NCBI GenBank assembly: GCA_017938055.1
Contig: JAGBCG010000120.1
Location: 1-24,051 of the forward strand
DNA length: 24,051 nt
Direction: 5' to 3'
Source of the DNA: Clostridia bacterium
GTDB lineage: Bacteria > Bacillota > Clostridia > Oscillospirales > CAG-382
The translations under genes were made by a program, and so were the position numbers. Positions 1,504 to 23,047 of this stretch are shown here, piece by piece (positions within the stretch are counted from its first letter, which is position 1; each line of letters begins with the position of its first letter). Below the pieces are notes generated by a model. It did no database searches and was not told the origin of the DNA. It saw only the letters and a list, made by a program, of their open reading frames with translations.

Positions 1504-3730
1504 TTTGTGTTTCCTCAATAAGCTGCTTTGCTATGTATGCGTTACGCATTGCCTTTTGACAAAGCTCTGCTCGCTTTTCACATATTTGCTCGACAACTGC
1601 CTGTCTGTTTTCGAGTATTTCGTCAAGACAGCGTGTTACTCCCTCACAGTCAATTTTGTCGGCATTAAAAATGTTTCTGTTGCCAACATACTGCAAAAAG
1701 CCCTCTACCTTTGGGTCATAAACAAGACCTATTGCAGGTACTGTACCTGTAAGAGCATATATGAGAGAATGTAAACGCATGGCAATTACACATTCGCATG
1801 CCGCAACTATTCCAAGATATTCGTTAACGCTGTATTTTCCGCTGACCACAACTGATTCATGCTTCATTTTTGATGCAACCGCCCTTGAAACAGGCGTATC
1901 ATTCTGTGGCTTCATGGGAAGAAAAACTGTTATAAGACCGTGCTTTTCATAAGCCCTGTCACAAATCTGAGCTATTTTTTCGCAAAAATCCAAATCATTT
2001 TGCTTCCAGCTTCTAACAGAAACGCACAGCAGCTTTTTACCCTTTAATGACACACATTCCTTTTCCAGCAAATTTCTTGCCCTCTCGGCAGATACTCCCT
2101 CAAGCAGTATTGCAGGGTCCGCCGTAACCTCAACAGGCACGTTTTCAATTCCCATACGCTTAATCTCGCCCAAAGACAGCTCATCTCTGAGCGTAATCAT
2201 ATTAACACCCGATACTACTTTTGCCGCAAGAGGTACATTTTTGTCGCTCAGCGGACCTATACCGTTGGCATATAAATAAACCGCCTTATTATACTTTTTT
2301 GCTGTTTGCATTACATAAAGATAATACACCAGCGACATGTCGCTTGTTGAGTCCTGAATAAGACTTCCGCCGCCCGTTATAAGCATTCTTGATTTTTTAA
2401 GTACTTTTTTCAAAGCAAAGGGATTAAATCGCTGTACCGAATCCACCATAAAGCTCTTTTTCGTTTCCTTTGGCCGTCTTGACAGTACAGCAAGCCTTAT
2501 ATCAGGCACAGCCTTTTTCATGCTTTGAATAATGCCTGACAAAAGTGCATCGTCCCCACTGTTTCTAAAGCCATAATAGCCTGACAGCACAGCATCATAA
2601 CAGCACTTATCCTTTGCACTTCTGAGAATTGCCCTGTATATATCCATGTGGGTGTTTGCAAGGCTTTCATTGGAAAAATTATTTGTTGCTCTTTCATAAA
2701 GAGCTTGTCCCAGCCTTTGACCGAGAGCCTTGTTTTCAACAAGCTTTATGATTTTCTCAGAAAATTCCATGTAATTCTCGTTTTCAAAAAGACAACCCGT
2801 AACATCGTCTTCAATAAGGTCAGGAATTCCTCCAACTCTTGAGCTTATGGTTGGCTTTGACATACGTGCACCCTCCATAAGAACATACGGAAAGCTTTCG
2901 CACCTTGAGGTAAGAGTATTTATATCAATAAAATTTATAAAGCTGTAAATATCCTTGATAAAGCCTGCAAAGGTGATATGCTCGCTTATACCAAGCTCTT
3001 TTACAAGCTTTACAAGTTCACTTCTTCCGTTTCCGTCACCTGCAATTATAAAGTGCACGTCTTTTCTTTTTTCAAGTACCTTTGCTGCACCTTTTATAAA
3101 AATATCGTGACCCTTTACTTTGTCATGGCGTCCTATAAGACCGATATATGTGATATTTTCATCATACTTTATGCCTATTCTGTCACAAAACTCTTGCTTC
3201 GTACAAAATTCCATAGGTTTTGAGTAATCCATGCCGTTATAAACGGTGTGAATTACAGAAGGAGTAAAGCCTCTTGAAATAAGCATTCTCTTAAACTCAG
3301 AGGAAACGGCAATATAGTAATCCAGCTTCTTGAGAGCCATTACGTTGAGCAAGGTGTAAATAACCTTTTTGTATATACCGTCAAAATCCAGAAGATAGTC
3401 GCTGTGCACCGTTGTTACAACAGGTATATCAAATTTCTTTTTAAGCTTTGAAGCAATAAAATTTGCTCTTGCACCATGGGCGTGAACAATATCCACTCCG
3501 TCCTGCTTTATAATTTGGCAAAGTCTGTCAAGAACACTCAAATCAAAGCGGCTTTTTTGCTCGATAAGCTCGCTGTCAACATCTATATTCTGCAAATCAT
3601 CAAAAAACTGTCCTTTTATGAAGCAGACAATCTTGACATCGCACAGCTTTGGCAACACACTCAGCAAGGAGAATATGTGTGTTTTTGCTCCGCCCGTGTC
3701 GCCACCGCTTATCATATGCAGTATTCTCAT
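1487..3730 (-). CDS. csaB: Fusion: N-terminal GT4 glycosyltransferase + C-terminal polysaccharide pyruvyl transferase CsaB
   Basis: aa 1-370 GT-B/GT4 (GGDTGG, HAHGARA, ESFPYVLMEG, SRVGGIPDLI). From aa ~378 CsaB-type SGYYGFRNSGDDALL, GGGSLIQDSTS...SLVYY, YANGIGPL, ITLRD, AMRLHSLI, YDPKV. Confidence 0.92.
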   Translation of the reverse strand: MRILHMISGGDTGGAKTHIFSLLSVLPKLCDVKIVCFIKGQFFDDLQNIDVDSELIEQKSRFDLSVLDRLCQIIKQDGVDIVHAHGARANFIASKLKKKFDIPVVTTVHSDYLLDFDGIYKKVIYTLLNVMALKKLDYYIAVSSEFKRMLISRGFTPSVIHTVYNGMDYSKPMEFCTKQEFCDRIGIKYDENITYIGLIGRHDKVKGHDIFIKGAAKVLEKRKDVHFIIAGDGNGRSELVKLVKELGISEHITFAGFIKDIYSFINFIDINTLTSRCESFPYVLMEGARMSKPTISSRVGGIPDLIEDDVTGCLFENENYMEFSEKIIKLVENKALGQRLGQALYERATNNFSNESLANTHMDIYRAILRSAKDKCCYDAVLSGYYGFRNSGDDALLSGIIQSMKKAVPDIRLAVLSRRPKETKKSFMVDSVQRFNPFALKKVLKKSRMLITGGGSLIQDSTSDMSLVYYLYVMQTAKKYNKAVYLYANGIGPLSDKNVPLAAKVVSGVNMITLRDELSLGEIKRMGIENVPVEVTADPAILLEGVSAERARNLLEKECVSLKGKKLLCVSVRSWKQNDLDFCEKIAQICDRAYEKHGLITVFLPMKPQNDTPVSRAVASKMKHESVVVSGKYSVNEYLGIVAACECVIAMRLHSLIYALTGTVPAIGLVYDPKVEGFLQYVGNRNIFNADKIDCEGVTRCLDEILENRQAVVEQICEKRAELCQKAMRNAYIAKQLIEETQNEIND

Positions 3731-8812: not shown

Positions 8813-9655
8813 TTACTTCAAAGTAATGCTGTCAGGCATTATGCCGGATTTATACTGACTTGGTGTAACGCCCAGTTTCTTTTTGAAAACTCTGCAAAAA
8901 TACGAGGTGCTTTCAAAATTCAGAGCTTCAACAATGTATTCAAGTGTGGTTTCACCGCTTTCAAGCATTTTCCTTGCGATATTAAGTCTTAAATCCATCC
9001 GGTATTCCATAGGACTTTTGCCTGAATACTCCTTGAAAAGCCGTCTGAAATGACATGAGCTCACATTACATGCCTTTGCAATTTCTTCTATTGAAATATT
9101 ACAAAGGGTATCTGATTCTATAAGCTCAATGCCCGTGCTGATAGGTGAAAACCGCTTATCGTACTTTCGCACTTTCTCCTTGCAAATGTGTAAAATAAGG
9201 TTATATACTGAGGTTTTTATTGCTAAAGCCGACGGCACTGAGGCTTCATAAGCCTGAACTACATTTTCAAAAAGGTCAGCCGCTATAGGAACATTTACAT
9301 CCTTTATTATAAATGGTTTGTCGGAAAAGGTGAGTATGCTGTCATTTTCTATTGCATTGAATTCGACCTGTATTGCATCATTCAGATTGCTTTCGCACTC
9401 AAGGTTAAGACAAGTATATTCGCTTGCATACGGAAGACAAACAATACTTTTTCTTGGTGCAGTAAAGCTTTCTCCGGTTTTGTCAGTGTATACTCCTGTA
9501 CAGTTATTAAGAAAGATGATGCCTGTTCTTGGCCTTGGTTTGAATCTTTCGAAAAGTACACCTTTTTTCCATATTTGTCGCATGGCAAAAATGTCCTCAA
9601 GGGCAAAATTTGTAAAATAAAAATCTCTTAAATTCAGCGTTTTACGTTTTAACAT
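8813..9655 (-). CDS. AraC family transcriptional regulator
   Basis: C-terminal double HTH SIEEIAKACNVSSCHFRRLFK...SPMEY...FESTSYFCRVFKKKLGVTPSQYK. GAGGTG RBS at 9664-9669 favours ATG 9655. Confidence 0.95.
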   Translation of the reverse strand: MLKRKTLNLRDFYFTNFALEDIFAMRQIWKKGVLFERFKPRPRTGIIFLNNCTGVYTDKTGESFTAPRKSIVCLPYASEYTCLNLECESNLNDAIQVEFNAIENDSILTFSDKPFIIKDVNVPIAADLFENVVQAYEASVPSALAIKTSVYNLILHICKEKVRKYDKRFSPISTGIELIESDTLCNISIEEIAKACNVSSCHFRRLFKEYSGKSPMEYRMDLRLNIARKMLESGETTLEYIVEALNFESTSYFCRVFKKKLGVTPSQYKSGIMPDSITLK

Positions 9656-9675
9656 CAAAACATCACCTCAAAACA

Positions 9676-9747: not shown

Positions 9748-9776
9748 TTGTAATAAAAAACTTTCAATGCTATAAT
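9748..9776 (+). promoter_or_regulatory. Sigma-A promoter of the catabolic operon
   Basis: TTGTAA (9748-9753)-17 nt-TATAAT (9771-9776) with extended -10 TG. Confidence 0.8.
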
Positions 9777-9813
9777 GATGTTGAATAAAGAAAATTACCT
9801 GGAGGCAGAAAAT

Positions 9814-10866
9814 ATGAATAAGATTAAACTCAGTACCCTTAAAAGCTTTTGCGAAGAAGCACTTGTAAAATCAGGTGTGTCCAAACAAAATGCACAAATG
9901 GTTGCCGACACCCTCATAACCACCGATACCTTTGGTGTTATGACACACGGAACAAAAAATCTTAACCAGTACATTCAGAAAATGAATGCCGGCGGACTTG
10001 ATGCTAAAGCTGAACCTGTTGTTGAGGTACAAGGTCCTGCTTTTGCCATTATAAACGGCAACAAAGCAATCGGCATGGTATCTGCCTGCAAGGCTATGAA
10101 GCTGGCTATCGAAAAGGCAAAGCAAACAGGTATTGCATACGTAGGTGTAAAGAACAGCTGTCACTTCGGTGCGGCAGGTTATTATGCAAATCTTGCAGCT
10201 AAAGAAGGCATGATCGGCCTTGCTATGAGTAATGCAGACCCTGTAATCGCAGTTCCCGGCGGAAGAAGCAAAGCAATAGGAACAAATCCCTTTTCTTTTG
10301 CTGCACCCACAGCGGACGGAAAAAGTGTATTTCTTGATATTGCACTCAGCAATGTTGCAGCACTTAAAGTTATTATGGCACAGGAAAAGAATCAGGCAAT
10401 TCCTGACACCTGGCTTGTGGACGAAGAAGGTATTCCCACAAATGATGCTTTTAAATTCCCCAAAAATGCAAGTCTGCAGCCCATGGGTGCACACAAGGGT
10501 TATGGTTTGGCAGTTCTTGTAGAATTGTTGTCATCTGTTATGACAGGTGCAGGTATTTTGAGTCAGGTGACAAGCTGGAATCTGGATCTTTCATCTACAA
10601 ATAATGCAGGTCATGCTTTTATTGCCATTGATATATCCCAGATGATGCCCAAAGACGTGTTTAATTCACGCATGACTCAAATGATAGATGAATTAAAGAA
10701 CGGACCTAAAGCAAAGGGTGCTGAAAAAATATTGTTGCCCGGCGAAATGGAATGGGCTAAGAGAGAGCAGGCACTTGAGTCAGGTGAGCTGGTTCTTACA
10801 GATGCTATGGCAGCAAGTCTTCAGCAGCTTGCAGCTTCTACAGGTCTGGCACTTGAATTGTATTAA
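9814..10866 (+). CDS. Ldh_2 family NAD(P)-dependent oxidoreductase (type 2 malate/L-lactate/sulfolactate dehydrogenase family)
   Basis: GVMTHG, NSCHFGAAGYY, GTNPFSFAAP, LDIALS, GAHKGYGL, LLPGE. Start reassigned to ATG 9814 behind GGAGG (9801-9805). Confidence 0.92.
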   Translation: MNKIKLSTLKSFCEEALVKSGVSKQNAQMVADTLITTDTFGVMTHGTKNLNQYIQKMNAGGLDAKAEPVVEVQGPAFAIINGNKAIGMVSACKAMKLAIEKAKQTGIAYVGVKNSCHFGAAGYYANLAAKEGMIGLAMSNADPVIAVPGGRSKAIGTNPFSFAAPTADGKSVFLDIALSNVAALKVIMAQEKNQAIPDTWLVDEEGIPTNDAFKFPKNASLQPMGAHKGYGLAVLVELLSSVMTGAGILSQVTSWNLDLSSTNNAGHAFIAIDISQMMPKDVFNSRMTQMIDELKNGPKAKGAEKILLPGEMEWAKREQALESGELVLTDAMAASLQQLAASTGLALELY

Positions 10867-10906
10867 TAAACAATAAAAATCATTATATTATAAGGAGATA
10901 ATTGAC

Positions 10907-11569
10907 ATGGAAAAGACAATGTACGGTATTTTAAAGACAACAGGTATTTGTCCAATTATGGTAGCACCCGAATTAGACTTTGCTGCAGATGCAGCACGTG
11001 CCATTGCAGAGGGAGGACTTCCCGTATGTGAGGTTTTGCTTCACAGAGATGAAAACTCACTTAACAGAATTAAGAAAATTGCTCTTGAAGCAACAGAGGT
11101 AACAGTTGGTGCAGGCTCGGTAATTTCTATAAGAGATGCCAAAGAAGCAATCGATGCAGGAGCAAAATTCTTTGTTTCTCCCGGATTTGTACCGGAGGTT
11201 GTTGAATTTGCTTTGAAGAAGAACATCCCGATTTTGCCCGGCTGCGTTACAGCAAGCGATATTTCATTGGCACTTAATTACGGAATAAACATTCTGAAGT
11301 TTTTCCCTGTTTATCAGCTTGGCGGAAAAGACACTCTTGCTCAGTATCACGGCGGTCCGTTCGGAAATGTTGAATGGGTTGTTACCGGCGGACTTAACGG
11401 AAACAACTTCTTGCCCTTTGCTGAAATAGATTATGTTCTGGCTTCGGGCGGTGACTGGATGTTTGCTGAAAACAATGCTATCAATGACAAAAATTATGAG
11501 CAGATTGTTCTCAACATGCGTAAAACAATCAAGGACGTTTTAAATCTACGTGCTCAAAAAAAGAACTAA
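10907..11569 (+). CDS. KDPG/KHG aldolase (Eda)-like class I aldolase
   Basis: GGLPVCEV, VGAGSV, GAKFFVSPG, PILPG, LKFFP (Schiff-base Lys), GPF, TGG, GGDW. Confidence 0.88.
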   Translation: MEKTMYGILKTTGICPIMVAPELDFAADAARAIAEGGLPVCEVLLHRDENSLNRIKKIALEATEVTVGAGSVISIRDAKEAIDAGAKFFVSPGFVPEVVEFALKKNIPILPGCVTASDISLALNYGINILKFFPVYQLGGKDTLAQYHGGPFGNVEWVVTGGLNGNNFLPFAEIDYVLASGGDWMFAENNAINDKNYEQIVLNMRKTIKDVLNLRAQKKN

Positions 11570-11624
11570 GCATCCGTATTTGATACTCTCTTACATATAT
11601 GTAACGTTTTAAAAGGAGAAAGAT

Positions 11625-12473
11625 ATGAATAGCATACAGGATACATTCAGAACATACAACGGTGTTGAAATACCATGTATGGGACTTGGAACCTGGCAAT
11701 CAAAGGACGAGGTTGCCAGAATATCGGTGCTCTGTGCACTTTCTCACGGCTATCGACTTGTGGATACTGCAGCCGCTTACGGAAATGAACGTGGCGTAGG
11801 TGCAGGCATAAAAGACAGCGGACTTGCGAGAGAAGAAATTTTCATTACAAGTAAGCTTCGTAATGCCGACCATGGATATAAAGCTACTCTTGACGCATTT
11901 GATTTGACTATGGAAAAGCTTGGACTTGACTATCTTGACCTTTATCTTATTCATTGGCCGAATCCTGTTCAATTCCGTTCAACCTGGAAAAAAGCTATGC
12001 AGGACACCTGGAGAGCTTTTGAAGAGCTTTATAATGCGGGCAGAATCCGTGCAATAGGCATAAGCAATTTTATGCCCCACCATATAGAAGCTTTAATGGA
12101 AAGTGCAAAAATCAAGCCGATGGTTAATCAGTTAAAGCTTTGCCCGGGAATTACACAGAGTTCGGTTGTTGAATATTGCAAGAAAAACGAAATAGTTGTT
12201 GAAGCATACAGCCCCTTTGGAACAGGTGCAATTTTTACTTCCGATGAAATGAAAAATTTATCTCAAAAATATAACAAGTCTATCGGTCAGCTTTGTCTGA
12301 GATGGTGCTTACAAAAAGGCTTTGTGTCGCTGCCTAAATCCGCAAACCCCATGAGAATTAAAGAAAATACAGAAATATTTGATTTTGAGCTTTCTGCACA
12401 GGACATGAATATTATCTCTTGTCTTGAAGGAATATGCGGCGAAGCTCCCGATCCTGACAATATTCTGTTCTAG
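11625..12473 (+). CDS. Aldo/keto reductase (2,5-diketo-D-gluconate reductase-like)
   Basis: GLGTWQ, catalytic tetrad intact (DTAAAY, TSKL, LIHWP), IGISNF, AYSPFG, LPKSANPMRIKEN. Confidence 0.93.
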   Translation: MNSIQDTFRTYNGVEIPCMGLGTWQSKDEVARISVLCALSHGYRLVDTAAAYGNERGVGAGIKDSGLAREEIFITSKLRNADHGYKATLDAFDLTMEKLGLDYLDLYLIHWPNPVQFRSTWKKAMQDTWRAFEELYNAGRIRAIGISNFMPHHIEALMESAKIKPMVNQLKLCPGITQSSVVEYCKKNEIVVEAYSPFGTGAIFTSDEMKNLSQKYNKSIGQLCLRWCLQKGFVSLPKSANPMRIKENTEIFDFELSAQDMNIISCLEGICGEAPDPDNILF

Positions 12474-12482
12474 GGCATCGAT

Positions 12483-13946
12483 ATGAGAATTAAAAACAAA
12501 GAAAAGCTCACCTCTCATTCAAATGTATACGGCAGAAAAATAGTTACCGAGCTTCTGGATGCAGGACTTGATGCTCTTGACCCGTACTTTAGAGTAAAAC
12601 AGTTCATTAAGGTTGAAAACAATAAGATTATACTCAACAATGAGGGCTTTGAGATGAAAGACGATCCTCATTCGGGACCCGTTGAATTTAATCTTAAAGA
12701 TTATGACAGAGTTTTCCTGTTTGGTGCAGCAAAAGGTATACAACGTGCAGCACTTGCTTTTGAAGAAGTTCTTGGCGACATTTTAACAGCCGGCCACGTT
12801 ATTGGCAAGCACGGAGAAGAAATTATATGCAAAAAGATAGGTGTAACATTGGCAGGACACCCTGTTCCTGACAGCTTTTGTGTTGAAGGTTGTAAAAAAA
12901 TCGAAGAGCTTCTGAAAGATGTCACCGAGCGTGATTTGGTATTTTCCATTTTTGGCAGCGGCTGCGGCTCTCTTTTCACTTATCCTGCAGGAAATATTAC
13001 GATTGACGATATTTCCCGCTTCACAAGGATGATGCAGATTGAAAAAGGTGTGCCCACAAGTGATTTGAATCAGATACGAACTCATATTGACCGCTTTAAA
13101 GGTGGAAGAATTACACGTGTGATTAAAAAAGCAACTCATGTATGTACGGTTACTGCCGATCCCTCAAAAATGGCAACTCCCGTTACCAGAGTGCCGTATT
13201 TCGAAATGCTTAAAACCAACACCTTTTTCCCAACAGTAGCAACGGCTTCAACATATGATGATTGTATAAACATAATCAACAAATGGGACGCATGGGATGA
13301 AACGCCTGATTCCATAAAAGAGCACTTGCTTTCAGGCACGTGCGAAACGGAAAACATGTCGGTGGAAGAATTTGAAACATATGGCTGTCGATTTTTTGGC
13401 TTGATTTTCAAGGATTCAACAGTATATCCCGCTGTCAGAAAAAAAGCCGCTGAAATGGGGCTTAAATGTATAATGCTTTCGGAATATATGGAAGCTGAAG
13501 CATGTCAGGCAGGGTTTGTTGACGGAAACCTGGCATTATGCTGTGAGAGAATGGGCGAGCCGTTCAGTGCACCTGTAGTTTTAATGTCCTCGGGAGAAAA
13601 TGTCGTTACTGTGGGCAAGGAAAAGGGCGTGGGTGGAAGAAACCAGGAATATTGTCTTGGTGCTGCCTTAAGAATTGCAGGAAGTGAAAAAATAGTTATT
13701 GGTGCTGTAGACACTGACGGAACAGACGGTCCGGGAGGCTTTTGTTACAAAGGAGCACCAAGCTGTCTTTCAGGAGCCGTTATAGATGGCTTTACGGCTT
13801 GTATTGCAAAAGAAAAAAACATTGATTTATGGAATGCCTTGAAAACCCACGGAACAAGCGAGCCGCTTTGGCTTCTTGACAGTGCTGTGGAAGCGGTTAC
13901 AGGTGTTTCAGCACTCGACTTGAGAATAATTTTTATAGGAGATTAA
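12483..13946 (+). CDS. Class II (MOFRL/DUF4147) glycerate 2-kinase-like protein
   Basis: GHPVPD, SDLNQIRTHI...KGG, GGRNQE, DTDGTDG, C-terminal motif equivalent to TGTNVxD (TGVSALD). Confidence 0.85.
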   Translation: MRIKNKEKLTSHSNVYGRKIVTELLDAGLDALDPYFRVKQFIKVENNKIILNNEGFEMKDDPHSGPVEFNLKDYDRVFLFGAAKGIQRAALAFEEVLGDILTAGHVIGKHGEEIICKKIGVTLAGHPVPDSFCVEGCKKIEELLKDVTERDLVFSIFGSGCGSLFTYPAGNITIDDISRFTRMMQIEKGVPTSDLNQIRTHIDRFKGGRITRVIKKATHVCTVTADPSKMATPVTRVPYFEMLKTNTFFPTVATASTYDDCINIINKWDAWDETPDSIKEHLLSGTCETENMSVEEFETYGCRFFGLIFKDSTVYPAVRKKAAEMGLKCIMLSEYMEAEACQAGFVDGNLALCCERMGEPFSAPVVLMSSGENVVTVGKEKGVGGRNQEYCLGAALRIAGSEKIVIGAVDTDGTDGPGGFCYKGAPSCLSGAVIDGFTACIAKEKNIDLWNALKTHGTSEPLWLLDSAVEAVTGVSALDLRIIFIGD

Positions 13947-13948
13947 AT

Positions 13949-15250
13949 ATGTTTGGTACAATAATTAAATCCGTTAAAGCATATCAGGTTTATACCAACA
14001 GAGGCAAGCCCGGCGTTGAAGTAATAGTTACCACCGAAAACGGAGCACAAGGACGAGCTATGTGTACTTCGGGAGTTTCAATAGGAACTCATGAAGTTGA
14101 TTTTACCTTCGACGGCGGAACAAAGTTTGGCGGCAAGGGTGTAACTCAGGCAGCTAAAAGAGTTGAAGATATAATTGCACCGGTGATTATCGGCATGGAT
14201 TCTGCAAATCAGGCAGAGGTTGATGCGGCAATTTTAAACATCTATCCCGATGAAAAGGTAAGACTTGGAGGTAATGCTGTTGCTGCAACAAGTGCTGCAG
14301 TACTTAAAGCAGGTGCAAATTCCCTTGGAATTCCTCTTTATCGTCATATAGGGGGAGCTGGTGCTATGTATCTTCCTGTTCCAGGTGTAGCCATGGTTGC
14401 CGGTGACGAGCGTTATGGCGGAGGAATAACTACCCCCGGCGGAAAGCCCACAATGTCTGTTATGGCATTTGGCTTTGATACTTTTTCTGATGCCTCCTAT
14501 GCGTGCTGGGAAGTACATACACGTTGGGCAGAAAAGATGAAAAAGCTGTTCGGTGGACTTCCAAATATCCGCGATTTTATCTCAATTCCCCAAGGAATAT
14601 ATAAGTCCGACAGGGAAATATGGGAAGAAATGCTCAAAACTATTATTGAAGCAGGTTATGAGGGAAAAATGGGCTTCCAGATGGATGTTGCAACAGATAC
14701 ATATCACAACAAACAGGATGATAAATACTATGGTCTGTTTGACAACACACCCAAAACAAAAGAACAGCTTTTTGATTTTTACATGCAGATTATTAAAGAC
14801 TATCCGTTTGTCATCATAGAAGACCCATTTAATGAGGACGATTACGATGCAACAGCACTTCTGACTAAGGAAAGCGGTATTCAAATAGTGGGTGACGATT
14901 TATTTACCACAAATCCCAAGCGTGTTGCTTATGGAATTTCAAAGGGAGCTGCAAACACCGTTCTGTTAAAGGTAAACCAGGTGGGTAGTATATCCGAGGC
15001 TCTTGACATGATTCAATATGCTTACAAATTCGGCTATGGTGTAATGCCCTCAGACAGCCGTGGAGAAGGAGAATCTATTGCTGACTATGCAGTAGGTATA
15101 AATGCAGGTTCAATACGTGAAAGTGCAATAGGGCCAAGAGGAAACAGATTCTTGGAAATTGAAAAAGAGCTTGGCTCGTCTGCAAAATTTATGGGTGCAC
15201 GCTCACTTAAGGGATTTCGTAACATTATGAGAGCAGACGGTAAATTATAA
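13949..15250 (+). CDS. Divergent enolase homologue (probably not a canonical 2-phosphoglycerate dehydratase)
   Basis: Enolase fold motifs RGKPGVE, SGVSIG, GGKGV, MDVA, IEDPF, VGDDLFTTN, LLKVNQVG are present, but several catalytic and phosphate-binding residues are substituted (see findings). Confidence 0.85.
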   Translation: MFGTIIKSVKAYQVYTNRGKPGVEVIVTTENGAQGRAMCTSGVSIGTHEVDFTFDGGTKFGGKGVTQAAKRVEDIIAPVIIGMDSANQAEVDAAILNIYPDEKVRLGGNAVAATSAAVLKAGANSLGIPLYRHIGGAGAMYLPVPGVAMVAGDERYGGGITTPGGKPTMSVMAFGFDTFSDASYACWEVHTRWAEKMKKLFGGLPNIRDFISIPQGIYKSDREIWEEMLKTIIEAGYEGKMGFQMDVATDTYHNKQDDKYYGLFDNTPKTKEQLFDFYMQIIKDYPFVIIEDPFNEDDYDATALLTKESGIQIVGDDLFTTNPKRVAYGISKGAANTVLLKVNQVGSISEALDMIQYAYKFGYGVMPSDSRGEGESIADYAVGINAGSIRESAIGPRGNRFLEIEKELGSSAKFMGARSLKGFRNIMRADGKL

Positions 15251-15266
15251 TTCTGGAGGGATTAAT

Positions 15267-16694
15267 TTGTTTAAACAGTATATTAACGGACAGCTTGTAG
15301 ATGGCAAAGGCAAGGCAATGAATGTATATGACCCGGCAACAGATGAAATTGTTGATGTGGTTGGATGTGCTGACAAAGAACAGACACTGGAAGCATTAAA
15401 TGCAGCAAAAGAAGCCTTTAATTCATGGTCAAAAGTTCCGGTAAGTGAGAGGGCAAAATGGCTTTACAAGTTCAGAGAAGCATGTGTACAAGAGCGTGAT
15501 ACTTTAGTTGAGCTTGTAATGAAAGAGTCAGGACGTCCATATGCTGCTGCATGCGGAGATGTTGACTGGCTTCTTACCAGCTTATCATATTATGCAGAGG
15601 AAGCAAAGAGAATTAATGGTACCATTCTGCCCAGCATTATGGTAGGTGACAAAGTAAATCACCACATGATTGCTAAAGAACCGGTAGGTGTAACGGTGGC
15701 ACATCTTGCATGGAACTATCCTCTTGGCAACGCAGGTATAAAGCTTGCACCGGCAATCGCTTCAGGCTGTGCTTGCATAATCAAGCCCTCAAGCCAGACA
15801 CCTCTTGCTACTTTGTATCTTGGTGTCATTGCAGAAAAAATAGGCTTCCCAAAAGGTGTACTCAATATTTTGGCAGGCCCCTCCGGTGAAGTTGCAAAAA
15901 CACTCAATGAAAGCAATATTCCAAGACTTATCTCCCTCATCGGCTCATACGAAACGGGTCTTAAGCTTATGCAACAGGCTTCTACCTCTGTAAAACGCTT
16001 TTCTCTTGAATTGGGTGGTAATGCTCCGGTTGTTGTTATGCCCGATGCAGACCTTGACGAAACTGCTGCAAATATTGTGGCAAAAAAAGTTGGCTTTGCC
16101 GGACAAACCTGTGTAAACTACAACAGAATTTACATTCACAAAGATATATATGAAGTTATGTGCGACAAGATAGCCAAAGAGCTTTCAAAGGTTAAGCTTG
16201 GAAAGCATAAAGACGAGGGTTATGTAATGGGTCCTGTAATTGACCTGCAGGCACGTGACAGAATGTTAGAGCTTATTGAACAGGCAAAGCAGAATGGTGC
16301 TACACTCGTTATGGGTGGTGAAGTGCCGGCAAATCAAAAAGGCAGCTATATAACACCTGCTTTACTCAAGGATGTAAATGACAGCATGAGAGTATCCACT
16401 GAGGAAATATTCGGACCGATTATCCCTGTTCAGCCCTTTAGCACCATTGATGAGGCGATTGAAAAGTCCAACAACACCATCTTCGGCTTATCAGCATACT
16501 TCTTTGGACACAATGCACAACAAATGACACGCTACATCGAAGGAGTTAAGGCGGGAGAAATATTTGTAAACGGCGGTATTGGCAGCGAGTTTACTCCTCA
16601 TGCGGGTGCAAAACAATCGGGTATTGGTTGTGATAAGTCAAAAGACTCACTGGAAGAATACTACGATATCAAGTTTATATCACTTATTTCATAA
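15267..16694 (+). CDS. NAD(P)-dependent aldehyde dehydrogenase (GabD/AldA-like)
   Basis: WNYP, KPSSQTP (like the NADP-type KPASQTP of E. coli GabD), LELGGNAP, AGQTC, EEIFGP. TTG start behind GGAGG. Confidence 0.93.
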   Translation: MFKQYINGQLVDGKGKAMNVYDPATDEIVDVVGCADKEQTLEALNAAKEAFNSWSKVPVSERAKWLYKFREACVQERDTLVELVMKESGRPYAAACGDVDWLLTSLSYYAEEAKRINGTILPSIMVGDKVNHHMIAKEPVGVTVAHLAWNYPLGNAGIKLAPAIASGCACIIKPSSQTPLATLYLGVIAEKIGFPKGVLNILAGPSGEVAKTLNESNIPRLISLIGSYETGLKLMQQASTSVKRFSLELGGNAPVVVMPDADLDETAANIVAKKVGFAGQTCVNYNRIYIHKDIYEVMCDKIAKELSKVKLGKHKDEGYVMGPVIDLQARDRMLELIEQAKQNGATLVMGGEVPANQKGSYITPALLKDVNDSMRVSTEEIFGPIIPVQPFSTIDEAIEKSNNTIFGLSAYFFGHNAQQMTRYIEGVKAGEIFVNGGIGSEFTPHAGAKQSGIGCDKSKDSLEEYYDIKFISLIS

Positions 16695-16708
16695 AAGGAG
16701 ACAGAAAC

Positions 16709-17686
16709 TTGAACAAAACTATTGATTTGATTGGTTTCGGAGATCCGTATCTGGATCTTGTTGTAAAGCTTAACAGACTGCCGCAAACCAACAAAAATAC
16801 TACAATAAACGACTATGGTTTTCAGGGCGGCGGCAATGTGCCCACCGCTTGTGTGGCAGCGGCAAGGCTTGGTCTTAAAACAAGTCTTATAGGCTGTGTG
16901 GGAAATGATTTGTTTGGTAAAATTTCTCTTTCTGACTTAGAGTATAACAATGTAAACATCTCAAAAATGAGTGTTCAGAACGAGAAAAAAAGCAATTTCT
17001 GCATATGTGTTACCGAAGATGAAGTGAACGGGAAAGAGTTTATAAGCAAGCCCGGTGATTTTTCTCCAATCACAGAGCAGGAAATAGACGAGGAGTTTTT
17101 CGCATCCACAAGAATGATGCACGTAGCTCTCATTACTCCTGCTGTGGCAAAGGCTTGTGACATTGTACACAAGCATGGCGGTAAAATCAGTGTAGATGCA
17201 AACTATTATCGTGCGTATACATATGATTATTACGATAAAATAGATATATTTATCGGCTCTGAGCTTTACTATGACTCTTTTTGCCAGGACAAAGGACTTG
17301 ACAGAAATGAATATGCAAAAAATATGCTTCTTTTAAAGTCGTTTGGCCCTGAGATTGTTATTTTCACCTTTGGTCCTGAGGGCTGCCGCGGCATTTACGA
17401 GGATAAGTATTTTGAAATACCTGCTTTTGACGTTGAGGTTGTTGATACAACAGGTGCGGGAGACGTTTTCCATGGAGCATTTGACTATGGATATTTGCAG
17501 GGCTGGGATGTTGAAAAATGTGCTGTTTTTTCCAGTGCTGTTTCTGCTATTAAATGCACCCGTCCCGGCGGTCGAAGCGGTATACCAACATTAGATGTTG
17601 TAACAAAATATCTTGAAACCGGAATTATAGATTATAGTGAGATTGATAAGCGAGTAAAACATTATGAAAGCGGTATATTAATCTGA
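16709..17686 (+). CDS. PfkB/ribokinase family sugar kinase
   Basis: GGGNVPTACVAAARLG, VGNDLFG, VDTTGAGDVFHGAF signature, KCTRPGGRSGIP. TTG start behind AGGAG. Confidence 0.93.
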   Translation: MNKTIDLIGFGDPYLDLVVKLNRLPQTNKNTTINDYGFQGGGNVPTACVAAARLGLKTSLIGCVGNDLFGKISLSDLEYNNVNISKMSVQNEKKSNFCICVTEDEVNGKEFISKPGDFSPITEQEIDEEFFASTRMMHVALITPAVAKACDIVHKHGGKISVDANYYRAYTYDYYDKIDIFIGSELYYDSFCQDKGLDRNEYAKNMLLLKSFGPEIVIFTFGPEGCRGIYEDKYFEIPAFDVEVVDTTGAGDVFHGAFDYGYLQGWDVEKCAVFSSAVSAIKCTRPGGRSGIPTLDVVTKYLETGIIDYSEIDKRVKHYESGILI

Positions 17687-17708
17687 ACAACAAGAAAGGA
17701 ATGATTTT

Positions 17709-18533
17709 GTGCGTTTTGAACTGAACGAAATATTGAACATTGGCGAAAAAAATGGATTTGCCATTCCTGCTTTTAATGTGTACACAATGGAAAATGTGCT
17801 GGGCGTTATGAATGCCGCACAGGAAACGGGTTCTCCCGTGATTTTCCAGATGTATAGCCGTCTTTTCGGCACACAGGTAGGAAAGTTTCTTGCACCTGTT
17901 ATCCTGGAAGCAATAAACGAGCTAAAAACTCCTGCAGCTTTTCATATTGACCACGGCACAGGCGAAGACATGGTTATCCGTGCAATACGGTATGGTGCAA
18001 CAGGAGCTATGATTGATGCTTCTACCTTGCCTTTACAGGAGAACATATCCAAAACAAAGCGTGTTGTTGAGTTTGCTACAGCTGCGGGCATATCAGTTGA
18101 GGGTGAGCTTGGTCATATCGGTAATACAGCAGAGGAAATTTCCAGCGAGTATACCAATGTTGACGATGCTGTACAGTATGTTGAACAAACCAGTGTTAAG
18201 GCTTTGGCAATTATGGTTGGTACAGCACACGGCAAATACAAGCAAACACCTAAGCTTGCCATTGACAGAATTGCCCAAATCCACGCTGCAACAGATGCAC
18301 ATCTTGTATTACACGGTGGTTCGGGCGTTCCCGATGAACAAATAAAACAGGCAATCAATGCGGGTATTCGCAAGATAAATTTTGCAACAGACCTTGCTCA
18401 TGCATTTATTGACGGATGTCGTGAGCTTGATGCAAAAAAATATCCCTTAGATGTTTATCTTGCTCATCCCACAGAGAAAGTTAAAGAATTTGCCATCAGC
18501 AAAATCAAGCTGTGTGGCTCAGATAAATATTAA
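17709..18533 (+). CDS. Class II (Zn) ketose-phosphate aldolase, FBA/TBA family
   Basis: AFNV, HIDHG, MIDAS, VEGELG, GTAHG, VLHGGSG, KINF. GTG start behind GAAAGGA. Confidence 0.92.
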   Translation: MRFELNEILNIGEKNGFAIPAFNVYTMENVLGVMNAAQETGSPVIFQMYSRLFGTQVGKFLAPVILEAINELKTPAAFHIDHGTGEDMVIRAIRYGATGAMIDASTLPLQENISKTKRVVEFATAAGISVEGELGHIGNTAEEISSEYTNVDDAVQYVEQTSVKALAIMVGTAHGKYKQTPKLAIDRIAQIHAATDAHLVLHGGSGVPDEQIKQAINAGIRKINFATDLAHAFIDGCRELDAKKYPLDVYLAHPTEKVKEFAISKIKLCGSDKY

Positions 18534-18566
18534 TTAAAAAACACTAATTTAAAAGGAGAATTGATT

Positions 18567-19391
18567 ATGAATTACCCAAGCTATTACAGCATTTCTGCAG
18601 CAGATCTCGAAAAGGACAGCAAGATTCCTATGATTTTGTTTGAAAATTCCGGTGAAGTTTATTTTGAATATGCACTGGAAATGTTGGAGGAGGTTGTTAA
18701 AAACAACGCCGAAGGAAAGAAAACTGTTTTCATCTGTCCTTGCGGTCCTGTAGAACAATACCCCATCTTCGCAAGACTTGTAAATGAACGTAATGTAAGT
18801 CTTAAAAACACATGGATTATCAACATGGACGAATATTTGACTGATGACGAAGAATGGATTGAAGAAAGTTCACCATTTTCTTTCCATGGCTTTATGAATC
18901 GTTTCCTCTATGAAAAAATAAAGCCTGAGTTGGTAATGCCGAAAGAACAGAGAGTGTTCCCTGATCCTCACTGTCCCGAAAAAATCGGTCAGCTTATCGA
19001 AAAGCTTGGCGGTGTTGATATGGTTATGGGCGGAATTGCCGTAAACGGTCACATTGCGTTCAATGAGCCTATCAGCAACATGAGCACAGAGGAATTCGCA
19101 TCACTTCCCACCCGTGTAGTTGAACTCAGTGCTGAAACACGTATTAAGGATGCAATCCTCAGCCGTGGCGGTGCTATTGATACCATGCCTAAAAAAGCTA
19201 TCACTGTTGGTATGAAAGAAATGATGGCTGCTAAAAAGCTTCGTTTGTCAATGGTAAACAACATGCAGCGTGCTGTAATTCGCCGTGCTACACATGGTGA
19301 AGTTACTTCAGAATGTCCTATCACATTTGTTCAGAATCATCCTGATGCAGTTTTGTTTGTCAGCAAGAACGTAACAGAGCTTCCGTTCTGA
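18567..19391 (+). CDS. Glucosamine-6-phosphate deaminase/isomerase (NagB)-like protein
   Basis: NMDEY, SFHGFM, GGVD, GHIAFNEP, TRVVEL, AITVGM, HPDA. Start set at ATG 18567 (AGGAG at 18554-18558). Confidence 0.85.
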   Translation: MNYPSYYSISAADLEKDSKIPMILFENSGEVYFEYALEMLEEVVKNNAEGKKTVFICPCGPVEQYPIFARLVNERNVSLKNTWIINMDEYLTDDEEWIEESSPFSFHGFMNRFLYEKIKPELVMPKEQRVFPDPHCPEKIGQLIEKLGGVDMVMGGIAVNGHIAFNEPISNMSTEEFASLPTRVVELSAETRIKDAILSRGGAIDTMPKKAITVGMKEMMAAKKLRLSMVNNMQRAVIRRATHGEVTSECPITFVQNHPDAVLFVSKNVTELPF

Positions 19392-19409
19392 TTTGTTGAG
19401 GATACAGCA

Positions 19410-20588
19410 ATGTTAGCAAATTCGTATTTTTGGATAGGAAACGGCACTACTGTTTTGCCCGGCAGAGCGTGTAAGCAGGGTTCTGTTCTTGTGAAAAATG
19501 GTAAAATCCTTGCTGTCAATGAGGCTTGTCCACAGGGTGTTACAAGAATTGATGCAAAAGGCGGATATATTTTACCGGGCTTTATAGACTTACACGTACA
19601 TGGCGGTGGTGGTGCGGATTTTATGGATGCAACGCCTGAAAGTGTTGCTACAGTTGCCATTGCCCATGCTAAACATGGTACAACCGGTCTGCTTGCTACA
19701 TCCATGACCAGCACTAACGATGTCCTTGAAAAAATGATCAACAGCTATTTAATAGCCGAAGAAAAAGGAACAGGCGGAGCTGAATTGTTGGGTCTGCACC
19801 TGGAAGGACCGTATTTCTCTGCTAAAAATAAAGGTGCACAGCCAGTTAAGGAACAGCGTATTCCCACACGTGAAGAGCTGGAATATTTCATTAAACTGGC
19901 AAAGGGACGAATTGTCCGTTGGGATGAAGCACCTGAGCTTGAAAATACAGATGTGTTTGCTCAGGTTATGAAAGAAAACGGAATTATAGCGTCTATTGCA
20001 CATACTTCCGCTATTGCTGCACAGGCGTATGCTGCATTTGATATGGGCTTTTCTCATATAACACATTTTTACAGTGCCACAACAACAGGTCAGAAAATTG
20101 ATGGTCTGTGCTATTCAGGCGTTAATGAAGCGACCTTTCTTGATGACAGAATCACTGTTGAACTGATTGCAGACGGCAGACATATTCCCAGAGAGCACAT
20201 GCTTTTAACGTATAAAATCAAGGGTGCTGACAAGCTGGCATTAATTACCGATGCCATGCGTGCAGCCGATACAAATGATACTCAAAGCATACTTGGTGCA
20301 ATGGACACGGGAGTGCCTGTTGTTATTAAAGACAATGTTGCACAGTTGCCTGATTTTTCTTCTTATGCAGGCAGTGTCGGCACAATGGACAATGCGTTAA
20401 GAGTAGCCCATGTGAGATATGGTATTCCTCTTGTGGATGTTGTGAAAATGATGTCCCTGACACCTGCCAGGATCATTGGTCGCAGCCATGATAAAGGCAG
20501 CCTTGAAGTTGGCAAGGATGCGGATATTGTAATCATGAACAACGATTTTGAGGTTGAAAGCGTATATGTTTGTGGAGTTGAAATATAG
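19410..20588 (+). CDS. nagA: N-acetylhexosamine deacetylase (NagA amidohydrolase family)
   Basis: PGFIDLHVHGGGG, HLEGPY, IAH, THF, IADGRH, ITDAM, AGS, TPA, GSLEVGKDADIV. Confidence 0.88.
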   Translation: MLANSYFWIGNGTTVLPGRACKQGSVLVKNGKILAVNEACPQGVTRIDAKGGYILPGFIDLHVHGGGGADFMDATPESVATVAIAHAKHGTTGLLATSMTSTNDVLEKMINSYLIAEEKGTGGAELLGLHLEGPYFSAKNKGAQPVKEQRIPTREELEYFIKLAKGRIVRWDEAPELENTDVFAQVMKENGIIASIAHTSAIAAQAYAAFDMGFSHITHFYSATTTGQKIDGLCYSGVNEATFLDDRITVELIADGRHIPREHMLLTYKIKGADKLALITDAMRAADTNDTQSILGAMDTGVPVVIKDNVAQLPDFSSYAGSVGTMDNALRVAHVRYGIPLVDVVKMMSLTPARIIGRSHDKGSLEVGKDADIVIMNNDFEVESVYVCGVEI

Positions 20589-20649: not shown

Positions 20650-20688
20650 AACTGACACTGTTTTATTATAGTGTCAGTTTTTCTTTTG
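20650..20688 (+). terminator. Rho-independent terminator ending the catabolic operon
   Basis: AACTGACACTG-ttttatta-TAGTGTCAGTT 11-bp stem (one G-U pair) followed by a T-rich tract. Confidence 0.85.
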
Positions 20689-20737: not shown

Positions 20738-20766
20738 TTGAAAAATACTTTGCTGTGTGGTATAAT
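20738..20766 (+). promoter_or_regulatory. Sigma-A promoter upstream of the repeat element and orphan ORF
   Basis: TTGAAA-17 nt-TATAAT with extended -10 TG. Confidence 0.8.
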
Positions 20767-20915
20767 GATTTCATCGAAGATGAAATCAGCGATATAAATC
20801 TCGTTCCTCGATTTTCGATATGTCATAAATGACTCGATATGTGCTAACGCACTCGATATGTTGCCTTACGGCAACGAGATTTATATCATATCGAGCAATC
20901 GAAGATGGCATATCG
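20766..20915. repeat. Multi-hairpin intergenic repeat element (three TCGATATG+hairpin units at 19-bp period inside a 15-bp inverted repeat)
   Basis: TCGATATG at 20815, 20834 and 20853. Perfect IR 20791-20805 / 20873-20887. Perfect 10-bp hairpin 20766-20788. Reverse-complement copies CATATCGA 20887-20894 and CATATCG 20909-20915. Confidence 0.85.
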
Positions 20916-21695: not shown

Positions 21696-22969
21696 TCATA
21701 TTTCGCTGACATAACGCCAAGTGGACGGCTTTCCCTCAAGCTCGTCTGCCATGTTTATGGCAAGGATGTTCCAGTTTACAAAGTCGGGACTCATTACAGG
21801 CTCTCTTGTTTCGGGATTGTAGTATTCATGCAATGTTCCGGTTTTTCTTAAGTCATCACCTAAAAGCGAAAGAGTTTTTTTGGCAATAATTTCTGCTTCT
21901 TCTTTAAGACCATAGTTCATAAGTCCTCTGAAAACGGCATACTGTGCGATAATCCATATAGGTCCGAGCCAGTTTGACGGGTTTGAGGATGCGTCAAGAT
22001 TGTACATTTTTTCGTCCCTTGAAAGTGAGCGAATACCGCCATTGCTCATATATGTGTTTTCATCAAGAATATGCTTTGCAAGCTCCTTTGCCTGCTGGTC
22101 TGTTGCAATAGAGCAAAGCATGGGAAGAAAGCTTGACCAGCTTCTCACCTTTATAAACAGCGTGTTCCAGAATACTCCAAGTCCCTTGTGGAACCAGTCG
22201 TAAGAACGGCATTTGATGTCAACATCCACGCTGTAGAACAGCTTGTCTCGGTTATCATAACATTCGTCCTGAACAGCTTGTGCAAGCTTTTGTGCTTTTT
22301 GCTCATATACGGTGTATTCTTCGTCACCGGTTTCTTTTAAAAGCTTTGCCATACATTTAAGCTCATTTACAAGGAATGAATTAAGGAATATGCCTGCCGT
22401 TGAAAATCTAGGTCTTCCAAATGCGGACGGGTCGTTGTCAACGCCAATCAAAACGTCATTTGCCCATACGTAAAGACCACATCTTTCATTGTAATAATAT
22501 TTGTCATAACAGGCAATATAATTTTTAGCTGGCAGATATATGGCTTTATCCATTCAAAAGAGCCGCTAAAGCCTGACACAAGACATACCTGATGGCAAAG
22601 AAAAGGCTTGTGCATATTGAGAATATCTCCGTCCTTGTGCTTCTTTATAAGGTAGGGGGTCTCGTTGTTTGGATTAAGCACCATTATAGGTATATAGCCG
22701 TCCTCAAGCTGAAAGGACAAAAAGTTAAGCACATTCCCTTTACCACATTCAATGATTTTTTCACGAAAGCCCTCAGGTGAGTTTCCGTTTTCAGCAACAT
22801 TTATCATCGCGAATGTCGCCCAAAAAGTATCCCAGTCCCATAGCTGTTGATTGTATGAAAAGCCGGGGTCAACAAAGGGATATTTGTAATTACCGCAAGG
22901 CTCTTTCATAGCCTTGTCAAGCTTTTCGAAAAGATATTCTTCAATGAGCTGTTTATCTGATTTGTTCAT
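21696..22969 (-). pseudogene. GH63/GH37-like (alpha/alpha)6-barrel glycoside hydrolase split by a 1-bp frameshift (true pseudogene or sequencing error)
   Basis: N-half from ATG 22969 (LWDWDTFW, NMHKPFLCHQ) and C-half (GVDNDP, NPSNWLGPIW, LHEYYNPET) join if one A is added to the A5 run at 22522-22526 (CAG CTA AAA AAT TAT, giving ...ICQLKNYIACYDKYY...). Confidence 0.8.
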
Positions 22970-23047
22970 GATAGTTCTTCCTTTTTGATAAAGTGTTTTG
23001 TACTGACAAAAAAGTCTGAAAAAGTACAAATAAAAGCACGTGGCTAT

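Follow-up and report, generated by a model that had tools for sequence, protein, structure and literature searches.

A conserved operon of gut Clostridia that may catabolize an amino sugar never phosphorylated at C6

Amino sugars released from mucin, chitin and microbial walls are major nutrients in the gut, and the textbook routes for their use all pass, to our knowledge, through 6-phosphates. Here, we describe a stretch of 24,051 nucleotides from a Clostridia bacterium of the Oscillospirales (CAG-382), which forms the whole of a 24-kb contig (C86; JAGBCG010000120.1) of a 1.53-Mb metagenome-assembled genome (MAG; G000) that is 75% complete; this contig is referred to below as the window. The sequencing runs that contain the sequence are animal gut metagenomes, including sheep, and those listed are all typed as DNA or untyped. 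The window carries a ten-gene operon, and we give a probability of about 50% to the reading that it catabolizes an N-acetylhexosamine (HexNAc) that at no stage carries a phosphate at C6. All substrates and reactions in this reading we infer from gene order, co-conservation and residue patterns, which are themselves directly observed.

Genes were identified from a list of open reading frames (ORFs) and from Pfam and NCBIfam profile scans. The ten genes lie on the + strand at 9814-20588, with intergenic gaps of 2-55 nt. The first encodes an Ldh_2-family 2-hydroxyacid dehydrogenase (9814-10866; PF02615, 371 bits), whose ORF is open from 9775 but for which the start at 9814 is preferred because homologues are 350-351 amino acids long and a GGAGG ribosome site lies at 9802-9806. 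It is followed by genes for an Eda-like class I aldolase of the KDPG/KHG family (10907-11569; TIGR01182), a DkgA-like aldo-keto reductase (AKR; 11625-12473; PF00248), a DUF4147+MOFRL kinase of the class II glycerate 2-kinase type (12483-13946; PF13660, PF05161), a non-canonical enolase-family protein (13949-15250; TIGR01060), an NAD(P)-dependent aldehyde dehydrogenase (ALDH; 15267-16694; PF00171, 457 bits), a PfkB-family kinase, which is the sole sugar kinase of the operon (16709-17686; PF00294), a SqiA-like class II, metal-dependent ketose-phosphate aldolase (17709-18533; PF01116, 276 bits), a NagB-like deaminase/isomerase that lacks the phosphate loop (18561-19391; no Pfam match) and a NagA-like deacetylase that lacks the inter-subunit phosphate arginine (19410-20588). 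An AraC-family regulator gene (8813-9658, − strand; PF00165, PF12833) is divergent from the operon, and such a gene adjoins it also in related loci (L002, L005, L006, L014, L015 and L098-L100). The promoter-like site at 9748-9776 (+ strand; TTGTAA-17-TATAAT, extended -10 TG, 10/12) is a consensus match only, and sites of this class are no commoner in the window than in shuffled sequence (29 versus 25.9), so that its position, not its score, argues for it. Past the last gene, an intrinsic-terminator-like element (20650-20688, + strand) consists of a 12-bp hairpin (20650-20679) and a T run. An earlier note on this DNA had described ten co-oriented genes with one promoter and one terminator, and the ORFs, family scans and hairpin agree with that anatomy; its statement that there is one sugar kinase and neither a phosphotransferase system (PTS) nor a hexosamine kinase likewise matches our annotation, in which no transporter, PTS or hexosamine kinase was found in the 24-kb window.

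The operon shares with the canonical NagA/NagB and Aga (AgaA, AgaI, KbaY) systems the same folds, catalytic residues and order of chemical steps, but it has lost the phosphate-binding arginine, loop and lysine and has no amino-sugar PTS or kinase. The NagA-like protein scores 245.7 bits with TIGR00221 (cut-off 225.65) and keeps the metal-binding and catalytic HxH, E, H, H and D residues. The arginine of the (H/G)REPG motif, the inter-subunit residue that binds the 6-phosphate (E. coli R227), is gone, and in all close orthologues the region reads QKIDGLCYSG, with a four-residue insertion. The NagB-like protein reaches 106 bits with TIGR00502 and so fails the cut-off of 236.9, and it keeps the catalytic Asp/His/Glu motifs NMDEY and GHIAFNEP. 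Judged by the phosphate loop pattern of canonical NagB, (A/P)TG(S/G)(S/T)P together with K208, it departs on both counts: the loop GLATGSTP of the canonical NagB of this genome reads CPCG------P, six residues being deleted in the alignment, and the lysine at the K208 position is a glutamine. That canonical NagB (266.8 bits; C258, L097:5351-6130) is encoded elsewhere in the genome, as is a NagA fragment with an intact HHREPG that is cut by a contig end (C92:4920-5603, L096). The NagB-like family is widespread in gut Clostridia, with 2945 matches, and relatives of it, one of them from Faecalibacterium, carry the name 'glucosamine-6-phosphate isomerase' at NCBI. The NagB-like protein is paired, in Faecalibacterium and in other genomes, with NagA variants that bear a histidine for the phosphate-binding arginine. 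Two such pairs, at L094:10001-14485 and L092:2418-4401, stand apart from the other genes of the operon, and the NagA copy has the histidine in both; behind the pair in L094 come a 383-aa class II aldolase-like gene and a PGI-like gene, neither of which reaches its equivalog cut-off, and the pair in L092, from a Faecalibacterium MAG, stands alone.

A similar loss is seen in the two aldolases. The Eda-like protein passes TIGR01182 (163 bits; cut-off 156.05) and keeps the residues aligned to E45, R49 and the Schiff-base K133 of E. coli Eda, with T73 replaced by serine. At the position of S184, the phosphate-binding serine of E. coli Eda, there is an aspartate, within the motif GGDWMF, in 14 of the 14 sequences aligned. 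The class II aldolase keeps its Zn ligands and the site for the phosphate of dihydroxyacetone phosphate (DHAP; HIDH, AHG, HGGSG) and passes TIGR00167, the model of the ketose-bisphosphate aldolase subfamily (234 bits; cut-off 215.6), and the C-terminal DPR motif, whose arginine binds the distal phosphate, reads PLD, with the aspartate present in every Clostridial orthologue aligned. Its best matches in the PDB are the sulfofructose-1-phosphate aldolases 8Q58 (185 bits) and 8Q57 (170 bits), followed by AgaY (157 bits), and it shares with SqiA a Q-x-x-x-(K/R) loop and a Y-x-L-x-V-x-L tail from which the arginine has been lost (PMC10665668).

The sugar kinase and the dehydrogenase follow the same pattern. 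The best PDB match of the PfkB protein, which also resembles IolC (110 bits, NCBIfam), is the sulfofructose kinase YihV (104 bits), whose sulfonate triad K27/N109/R138 (PMC8006165) reads N/S/I in a remote phmmer alignment that is suggestive only. The ALDH has N150, E248 and C282, and its best NCBIfam matches include glyceraldehyde dehydrogenase. In sulfolactaldehyde dehydrogenases, an anion is bound by the pair Arg171/Arg289, or by His/Asn (bioRxiv 10.1101/2023.03.13.532361), and I158 and G276 here occupy the two positions at which succinate-semialdehyde and sulfolactaldehyde dehydrogenases have their anion-binding arginines. Distal anion-binding residues are thus missing from six enzymes (NagA-like, NagB-like, class II aldolase, Eda-like, PfkB and ALDH). 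The lack of distal phosphate residues in the NagA-like, the NagB-like and both aldolase proteins, together with the canonical NagB and NagA copies elsewhere in the genome, supports a substrate that is not 6-phosphorylated. The alignments also uphold what the earlier note had read from motifs, namely that the NagA-like, NagB-like and class II aldolase proteins lack the residues that bind a C6 phosphate. Of the two remaining oxidoreductases, the Ldh_2 protein has sulfolactate dehydrogenase and ureidoglycolate dehydrogenase as its top NCBIfam matches, both far below cut-offs, and type 2 malate/lactate dehydrogenases as its best PDB matches, and the AKR, with the catalytic D47, Y52, K77 and H110, scores 238 bits with NF008598 (cut-off 425).

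Conservation was followed on contigs carrying genes closely homologous to those for the enolase-like, NagB-like and Eda-like proteins, and in a species-genome scan with a BLAST synteny table. A core of eight genes (Ldh_2, Eda-like, AKR, MOFRL kinase, enolase-like, ALDH, PfkB and class II aldolase) recurs, with proteins that are 45-91% identical, on more than 12 independent contigs of Clostridia, which belong to MAGs of goat colon, Acutalibacteraceae, Aristaeellaceae, Monoglobaceae-like and other origin. The genes, whose syntenic clusters the earlier note had proposed to look for, are thus indeed co-conserved. Several layouts exist, some of them rearranged (L006, L007, L016), in which the genes stay together, and the Ldh_2, AKR and Eda genes are always the first of the core. 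What varies is the entry module. The NagB-like and NagA-like genes serve as such in the window, in L006 and in L007/8; L002, L004, L005, L014-16 and L098-100 (the sister operons) have instead, between the PfkB and aldolase genes, a gene for an aldose-ketose isomerase (463 aa; fucose-isomerase family), which is usually accompanied by DUF4867, SDR and small amidohydrolase genes; both modules occur together in L012 and L017/18. The isomerase is weakly SftI-like (NF048012, 95 bits against a cut-off of 700). From this swap of NagA/NagB-like enzymes for an aldose isomerase we conclude that the core takes a free ketose. Identity to orthologues is 45-75% for PfkB and 52-63% for the class II aldolase, and 50-91% for the MOFRL kinase, enolase-like, ALDH and Eda proteins; the greater divergence of the first two is in keeping with upper enzymes adapted to different sugars and lower ones that act on a shared product.

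Candidate uptake genes accompany some of these loci. In L007, the genes for the NagA-like and NagB-like proteins adjoin those for an ABC importer of the CUT1 type and a GH109-like cytoplasmic enzyme, which would be expected to supply free HexNAc inside the cell; the cluster has no HexNAc kinase. The sister operon seen most widely (L098-L100:3592-8736) is divergent from an AraC gene, a gene for a RhaM-like mutarotase and a TAXI-TRAP transporter (binding protein, DUF1850 and fused permease). Sister loci also encode a neighbouring 670-aa protein that is glycosidase-like and of the six-hairpin type. The operon is accessory: the enolase-like gene was found in 0 of the 13 genus mates searched.

These data also bear on ordinary 6-phosphate chemistry. 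In that case, the last four genes would form a divergent Aga/Nag-type pathway, leading from N-acetylgalactosamine (GalNAc) or N-acetylglucosamine (GlcNAc) 6-phosphate through hexosamine 6-phosphate, ketose 6-phosphate and the 1,6-bisphosphate to DHAP and glyceraldehyde 3-phosphate, and the first six would be an unrelated acid-catabolic module on one transcript. Such an arrangement would fit the passing scores of the NagA-like protein and the class II aldolase, the known AgaA/AgaI/PfkB/KbaY pathway, which has this gene set, and the aldolase-like and PGI-like genes beside the pair in L094, but we consider it very unlikely: the phosphate-binding residues are lost in every orthologue examined, the genome has its canonical NagB and NagA fragment, neither the window nor any annotated locus showed a PTS or HexNAc kinase, in place of which the syntenic L007 has an ABC importer, the kinase/aldolase pair of the sister operons receives its substrate from an isomerase whose family acts on free aldoses, and the ten genes, or the eight-gene core, remain together in the rearranged layouts.

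The MOFRL kinase and the enolase-like protein form a pair of their own. The kinase has the DUF4147+MOFRL architecture, has PH0495 and the glycerate kinase TM1585 as its best PDB matches and resembles archaeal glycerate 2-kinases in NCBIfam, with scores for the glycerate 2-kinase equivalog models of 83 and 74 bits (cut-offs 550 and 670). The enolase-like protein, with 283.5 bits for TIGR01060 (283 in the genome search), fails the equivalog cut-off of 300 and falls in a small sequence space of non-canonical enolases (50%-identity library). Aligned to 2PA6, and in yeast enolase numbering, it has E168 replaced by T, E211 by F, H373 by D and H159 by R; E168, E211 and H373 are the acid and water-activating residues, and no acidic residue is conserved at these three positions across the subfamily. 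The metal ligands (D246, E295, D320), the Lys345 base (LLKVNQ) and the second-metal serine aligned to S39 are invariant in the subfamily alignment, as are R155, Y156, K166 and R371, and R374/S375 is swapped to S/R. Judging from these residues, the protein appears to keep the proton-abstraction half of the enolase site, with the leaving-group side rebuilt. The earlier note held that the phosphate site had been lost, a view that the swapped R374/S375 and the retained serine speak against; the site was probably kept and remodelled. A phosphorylated substrate is probable in view of that serine and of the pairing with the MOFRL kinase across phyla: the two genes adjoin in about 34 of 40 loci, in Clostridia, Chloroflexota, Dehalococcoidia, Spirochaetales, Atribacterota, Bathyarchaeia and Nitrososphaeria. 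Frequent neighbours of the pair are D-2-hydroxyacid dehydrogenases, MR/MLE dehydratases and importers of the TAXI-TRAP (L026, L028, L039) or LIV type. The position of the pair here, after a ketose-1-phosphate aldolase and an ALDH, suggests that its substrate is a C3 2-hydroxy acid. A 220-aa protein encoded beside the pair in L009 was considered as an Eda homologue and proved not to be one. In a Christensenellaceae MAG (G030), the non-canonical family is greatly expanded, with one canonical enolase and about nine further enolase-family genes in the genome, and MOFRL kinase genes lie beside enolase-family genes at L019 and L024.

In the proposed model, the NagA-like enzyme would remove acetate from the free sugar, the NagB-like enzyme would deaminate and isomerize the hexosamine to a ketose, PfkB would phosphorylate this ketose at C1 and the SqiA-like aldolase would split the ketose 1-phosphate into DHAP and a C3 aldehyde. 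The aldehyde would then be oxidized by the ALDH to a 2-hydroxy acid, which the MOFRL kinase would phosphorylate at O2, and from which the non-canonical enolase would abstract the C2 proton and eliminate the C3 substituent to yield phosphoenolpyruvate (PEP). By analogy with the non-phosphorylative Entner-Doudoroff (ED) branch, the Eda-like protein probably splits an unphosphorylated 2-keto-3-deoxy acid to give pyruvate and that same aldehyde. Ldh_2 and AKR probably interconvert the hydroxy acid with its 2-oxo acid or aldehyde; they may also interconvert it with its enantiomer, or reduce the aldehyde. The upper steps, from deacetylase through deaminase/isomerase, 1-kinase and class II aldolase to ALDH, had been proposed in the earlier note and are strongly backed by the isomerase-type sister operons; its scheme left out the second gene, for the KDPG/KHG-type aldolase, and is incomplete in that respect.

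As the group at C6, a hydroxyl is our first choice, at roughly even odds. GlcNAc, GalNAc or N-acetylmannosamine (ManNAc) would then be converted to fructose or tagatose, its 1-phosphate, DHAP and glyceraldehyde, and the latter through glycerate and 2-phosphoglycerate to PEP. A hydroxyl is favoured by the loss of cationic residues from six enzymes and by the aspartates in two distal pockets, which could hydrogen-bond to it, as well as by the abundance of the three amino sugars in the gut and a gene content that fits the Hers pathway plus the lower non-phosphorylative ED branch. The Hers-type fructose 1-phosphate pathway consists of ketohexokinase, aldolase B, aldehyde dehydrogenase and glycerate kinase. 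It resembles the operon in that a PfkB-fold ketose 1-kinase is used, the ketose 1-phosphate is split into DHAP and an unphosphorylated triose, and the triose is oxidized and then phosphorylated, whereas the operon is bacterial, has a class II aldolase, obtains its ketose from an amino sugar via the NagA-like and NagB-like enzymes, and pairs a MOFRL-type 2-kinase with a non-canonical enolase. The archaeal lower non-phosphorylative ED branch comprises KD(P)G aldolase, glyceraldehyde dehydrogenase, MOFRL glycerate 2-kinase and enolase (PMC2063504), to which correspond the pyruvate-forming aldolase, ALDH, MOFRL kinase and enolase-family gene of the operon; in contrast to that branch, however, the aldolase here is Eda-type rather than DHDPS-type, the enolase-like protein lacks E168, E211 and H373, and neither a sugar dehydrogenase nor a gluconate dehydratase is present.

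The operon also resembles the sulfo-Embden-Meyerhof-Parnas (sulfo-EMP) and sulfo-EMP2 pathways, which use a YihS/SftI-type isomerase, YihV or SqiK kinase, YihT or SqiA aldolase and sulfolactaldehyde dehydrogenase (PMC8006165, PMC10665668). The likeness lies in a C6 that bears a non-phosphate group, in 1-phosphorylation, aldol cleavage and oxidation of the C3 aldehyde, and in YihV and SqiA as nearest solved structures. The operon differs in lacking the conserved sulfonate-binding residues and any recognized sulfoquinovosidase or exporter, in its NagA-like/NagB-like entry, and in a C3 acid that is apparently processed further by the kinase and the enolase-like protein rather than excreted. The operon is made of known folds and would combine the logics of the Hers, non-phosphorylative ED and sulfo-EMP pathways, its last two steps being a genuinely new reaction. 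Literature searches found no description of the operon, of free-sugar NagA/NagB variants or of the kinase/enolase-like pair, and papers on DUF4867 and on rumen sulfoquinovose do not describe it either; the remark in the earlier note that no described pathway has this gene set therefore holds for these searches.

Several points weigh against a sugar with a plain C6 hydroxyl, or against the model as a whole. If the acid were D-glycerate, an ordinary enolase would suffice, yet E168, E211 and H373 are lacking, and a canonical enolase is encoded in addition in four other carriers of the operon. For both the kinase and the class II aldolase, the best structural matches are sulfoglycolytic enzymes. 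The commonest sister operon adjoins a TAXI-TRAP importer, a type known for organic anions, which could point to an anionic sugar substrate, although this importer may instead bring in the C3 acid itself, as the same type accompanies the kinase/enolase-like pair alone in other phyla. The NagA-like protein passes the NCBI cut-off for NagA and would be annotated automatically as a 6-phosphate enzyme, and the window has no transporter or glycosidase that would name the sugar. The roles given to Ldh_2, AKR and Eda are guesses and are the weakest part of the model.

Some of these observations would be explained by a sulfo-sugar, an alternative that we take seriously but hold to be rather improbable. 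In this case, C6 would carry either a sulfate ester, as in the GlcNAc-6-O-sulfate or Gal-6-O-sulfate of mucin or keratan sulfate, or else a sulfonate, the substrate then being sulfoquinovose in the isomerase-type operons and its amino analogue in the operon of the window, with upper steps that mirror sulfo-EMP. The ALDH would produce 3-sulfoglycerate or sulfolactate, the MOFRL kinase its 2-phosphate, from which the enolase-like protein would eliminate sulfate or sulfite to give PEP, and Ldh_2 and AKR would racemize sulfolactate via sulfopyruvate. Sulfate and sulfite are good leaving groups that need no general acid, which would explain why the enolase-like protein has lost its acid triad, and the same protein has gained the invariant R155, K166 and R371. 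The YihV and SqiA matches, the loop and tail shared with SqiA, the sulfolactate dehydrogenase model as top NCBIfam match of Ldh_2, the TAXI-TRAP importers beside the commonest sister operon and other MOFRL/enolase-like pairs, and the herbivore gut origin of the samples are all in keeping with it, as are the SftI-like isomerase and the DUF4867 protein of the sister operons, the latter matching the sulfoglycolytic SqvD structure 9GYY with 176 bits. However, the YihV K/N/R triad and both sulfolactaldehyde dehydrogenase arginine positions are absent, an invariant aspartate lies where the distal anion would be in both aldolases, and all matches to models of sulfo-enzymes are far below family cut-offs. 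Furthermore, no sulfoquinovosidase was recognized in any locus, no sulfatase or sulfite/sulfonate exporter was found among annotated neighbours, 'sulfoquinovosamine' occurs nowhere in the literature searched, and the Eda-like aldolase would still have no explanation. In the carriers searched, AsrC-type sulfite reductase, considered as a marker of the sulfonate route, gave no match above its cut-off. Rather doubtful, too, is the more specific proposal that the MOFRL kinase and the enolase-like protein form a new energy-conserving lyase system, in which a 3-sulfo- or 3-O-sulfo-C3 acid would first be phosphorylated at position 2 and would then lose its sulfite or sulfate to become PEP; if it were true, gut Clostridia would fully ferment 6-sulfated or 6-sulfonated sugars, including the GlcNAc-6-sulfate of mucin, without a sulfatase or sulfolyase.

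A carboxylate or a methyl group at C6 would each leave at least two core enzymes idle, and we regard a hexosaminuronate or 6-deoxy-hexosamine route as quite improbable. In the uronate version, starting from the N-acetylhexosaminuronates GalNAcA, ManNAcA or GlcNAcA, the aldolase would form tartronate semialdehyde, which AKR or Ldh_2 would reduce to glycerate for the MOFRL kinase; in the 6-deoxy version, starting from N-acetylfucosamine (FucNAc), N-acetylquinovosamine (QuiNAc) or N-acetylrhamnosamine (RhaNAc), lactaldehyde would be converted via lactate to pyruvate by ALDH and Ldh_2. The context offers genes for a GntR/FCD regulator (L007), RhaM-like mutarotases (L005, L015, L098) and, adjoining L004, a PL8 lyase, and the membership of the isomerase in the fucose-isomerase family, that of Ldh_2 in the malate/L-lactate dehydrogenase family and the resemblance of PfkB to IolC could be read in the same way. 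Against this, a uronate gives no role to the ALDH, which lacks a carboxylate-binding arginine, or to the enolase-like protein, and for that reason, and because 2,5-diketo-3-deoxygluconate 1-phosphate, whose C4 has no hydroxyl, could not undergo the retro-aldol reaction, the route via tartronate semialdehyde was rejected; a 6-deoxy sugar gives none to the MOFRL kinase and the enolase-like protein, since 2-phospholactate has no leaving group; and polar aspartates line the distal pockets. The earlier note had left CH2OH, COO-, CH3 and CH2SO3- open at C6; of this list the uronate is not supported, and an O-sulfate ester, which it did not consider, has to be added.

Two further candidates were set aside. 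Catabolism of disaccharides of an unsaturated uronate and HexNAc has the one PL8 neighbour in its favour, and no GH88 or GH105 gene was found among the annotated flanking genes. For a sialic-acid or 3-deoxy-D-manno-octulosonate (Kdo) lyase role of the Eda-like protein, no sialidase or transporter context was seen.

The enolase content of the host lineage is unusual. Searches for canonical enolase (TIGR01060) gave no match in the MAG, in any of 15 genomes of its family (completeness 77-99%, some of these reaching 97-99%) or in four of ten other families of the order searched, whereas 14 of 14 control genomes gave one, so that the family looks like an enolase-less lineage of gut Clostridia. The enolase-like gene of the operon is the only enolase-family gene found in this genome, and a private route to PEP would make sense in a family in which no canonical enolase was found. 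A role as substitute housekeeping enolase was rejected, as 13 of the 13 genus mates searched lack both genes and other carriers have both.

If the favoured reading, a route through a sugar unphosphorylated at C6, is right, the operon represents an unrecognized amino-sugar route, widespread in animal-gut Clostridia, in which a free sugar is deacetylated and deaminated and a ketose 1-phosphate is split, and its NagA-like and NagB-like proteins would at present be annotated automatically as 6-phosphate enzymes. The operon is also the best available handle on the kinase/enolase-like pair that recurs across bacterial and archaeal phyla.

Outside the operon, the region upstream of the AraC gene contains cell-wall polysaccharide genes. 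One of these (1487-3730, − strand) encodes a 747-aa fusion of a GT4 glycosyltransferase and a CsaB-like polysaccharide pyruvyl transferase and belongs to a cluster for cell-wall glycopolymers that also has MurJ-like, Wzy-like and DUF4330 genes. On the other side, just past the operon terminator, the interval 20738-20890 holds a strong promoter-like site (TTGAAA-17-TATAAT, 11/12, TG), followed by inverted repeats and by repeats spaced at 19 bp. Further downstream (21696-23029, − strand), a GH63/MGH1-like six-hairpin glycosidase gene is apparently split into overlapping ORFs of 285 aa and 193 aa, which could reflect a frameshift, a pseudogene or an assembly error.

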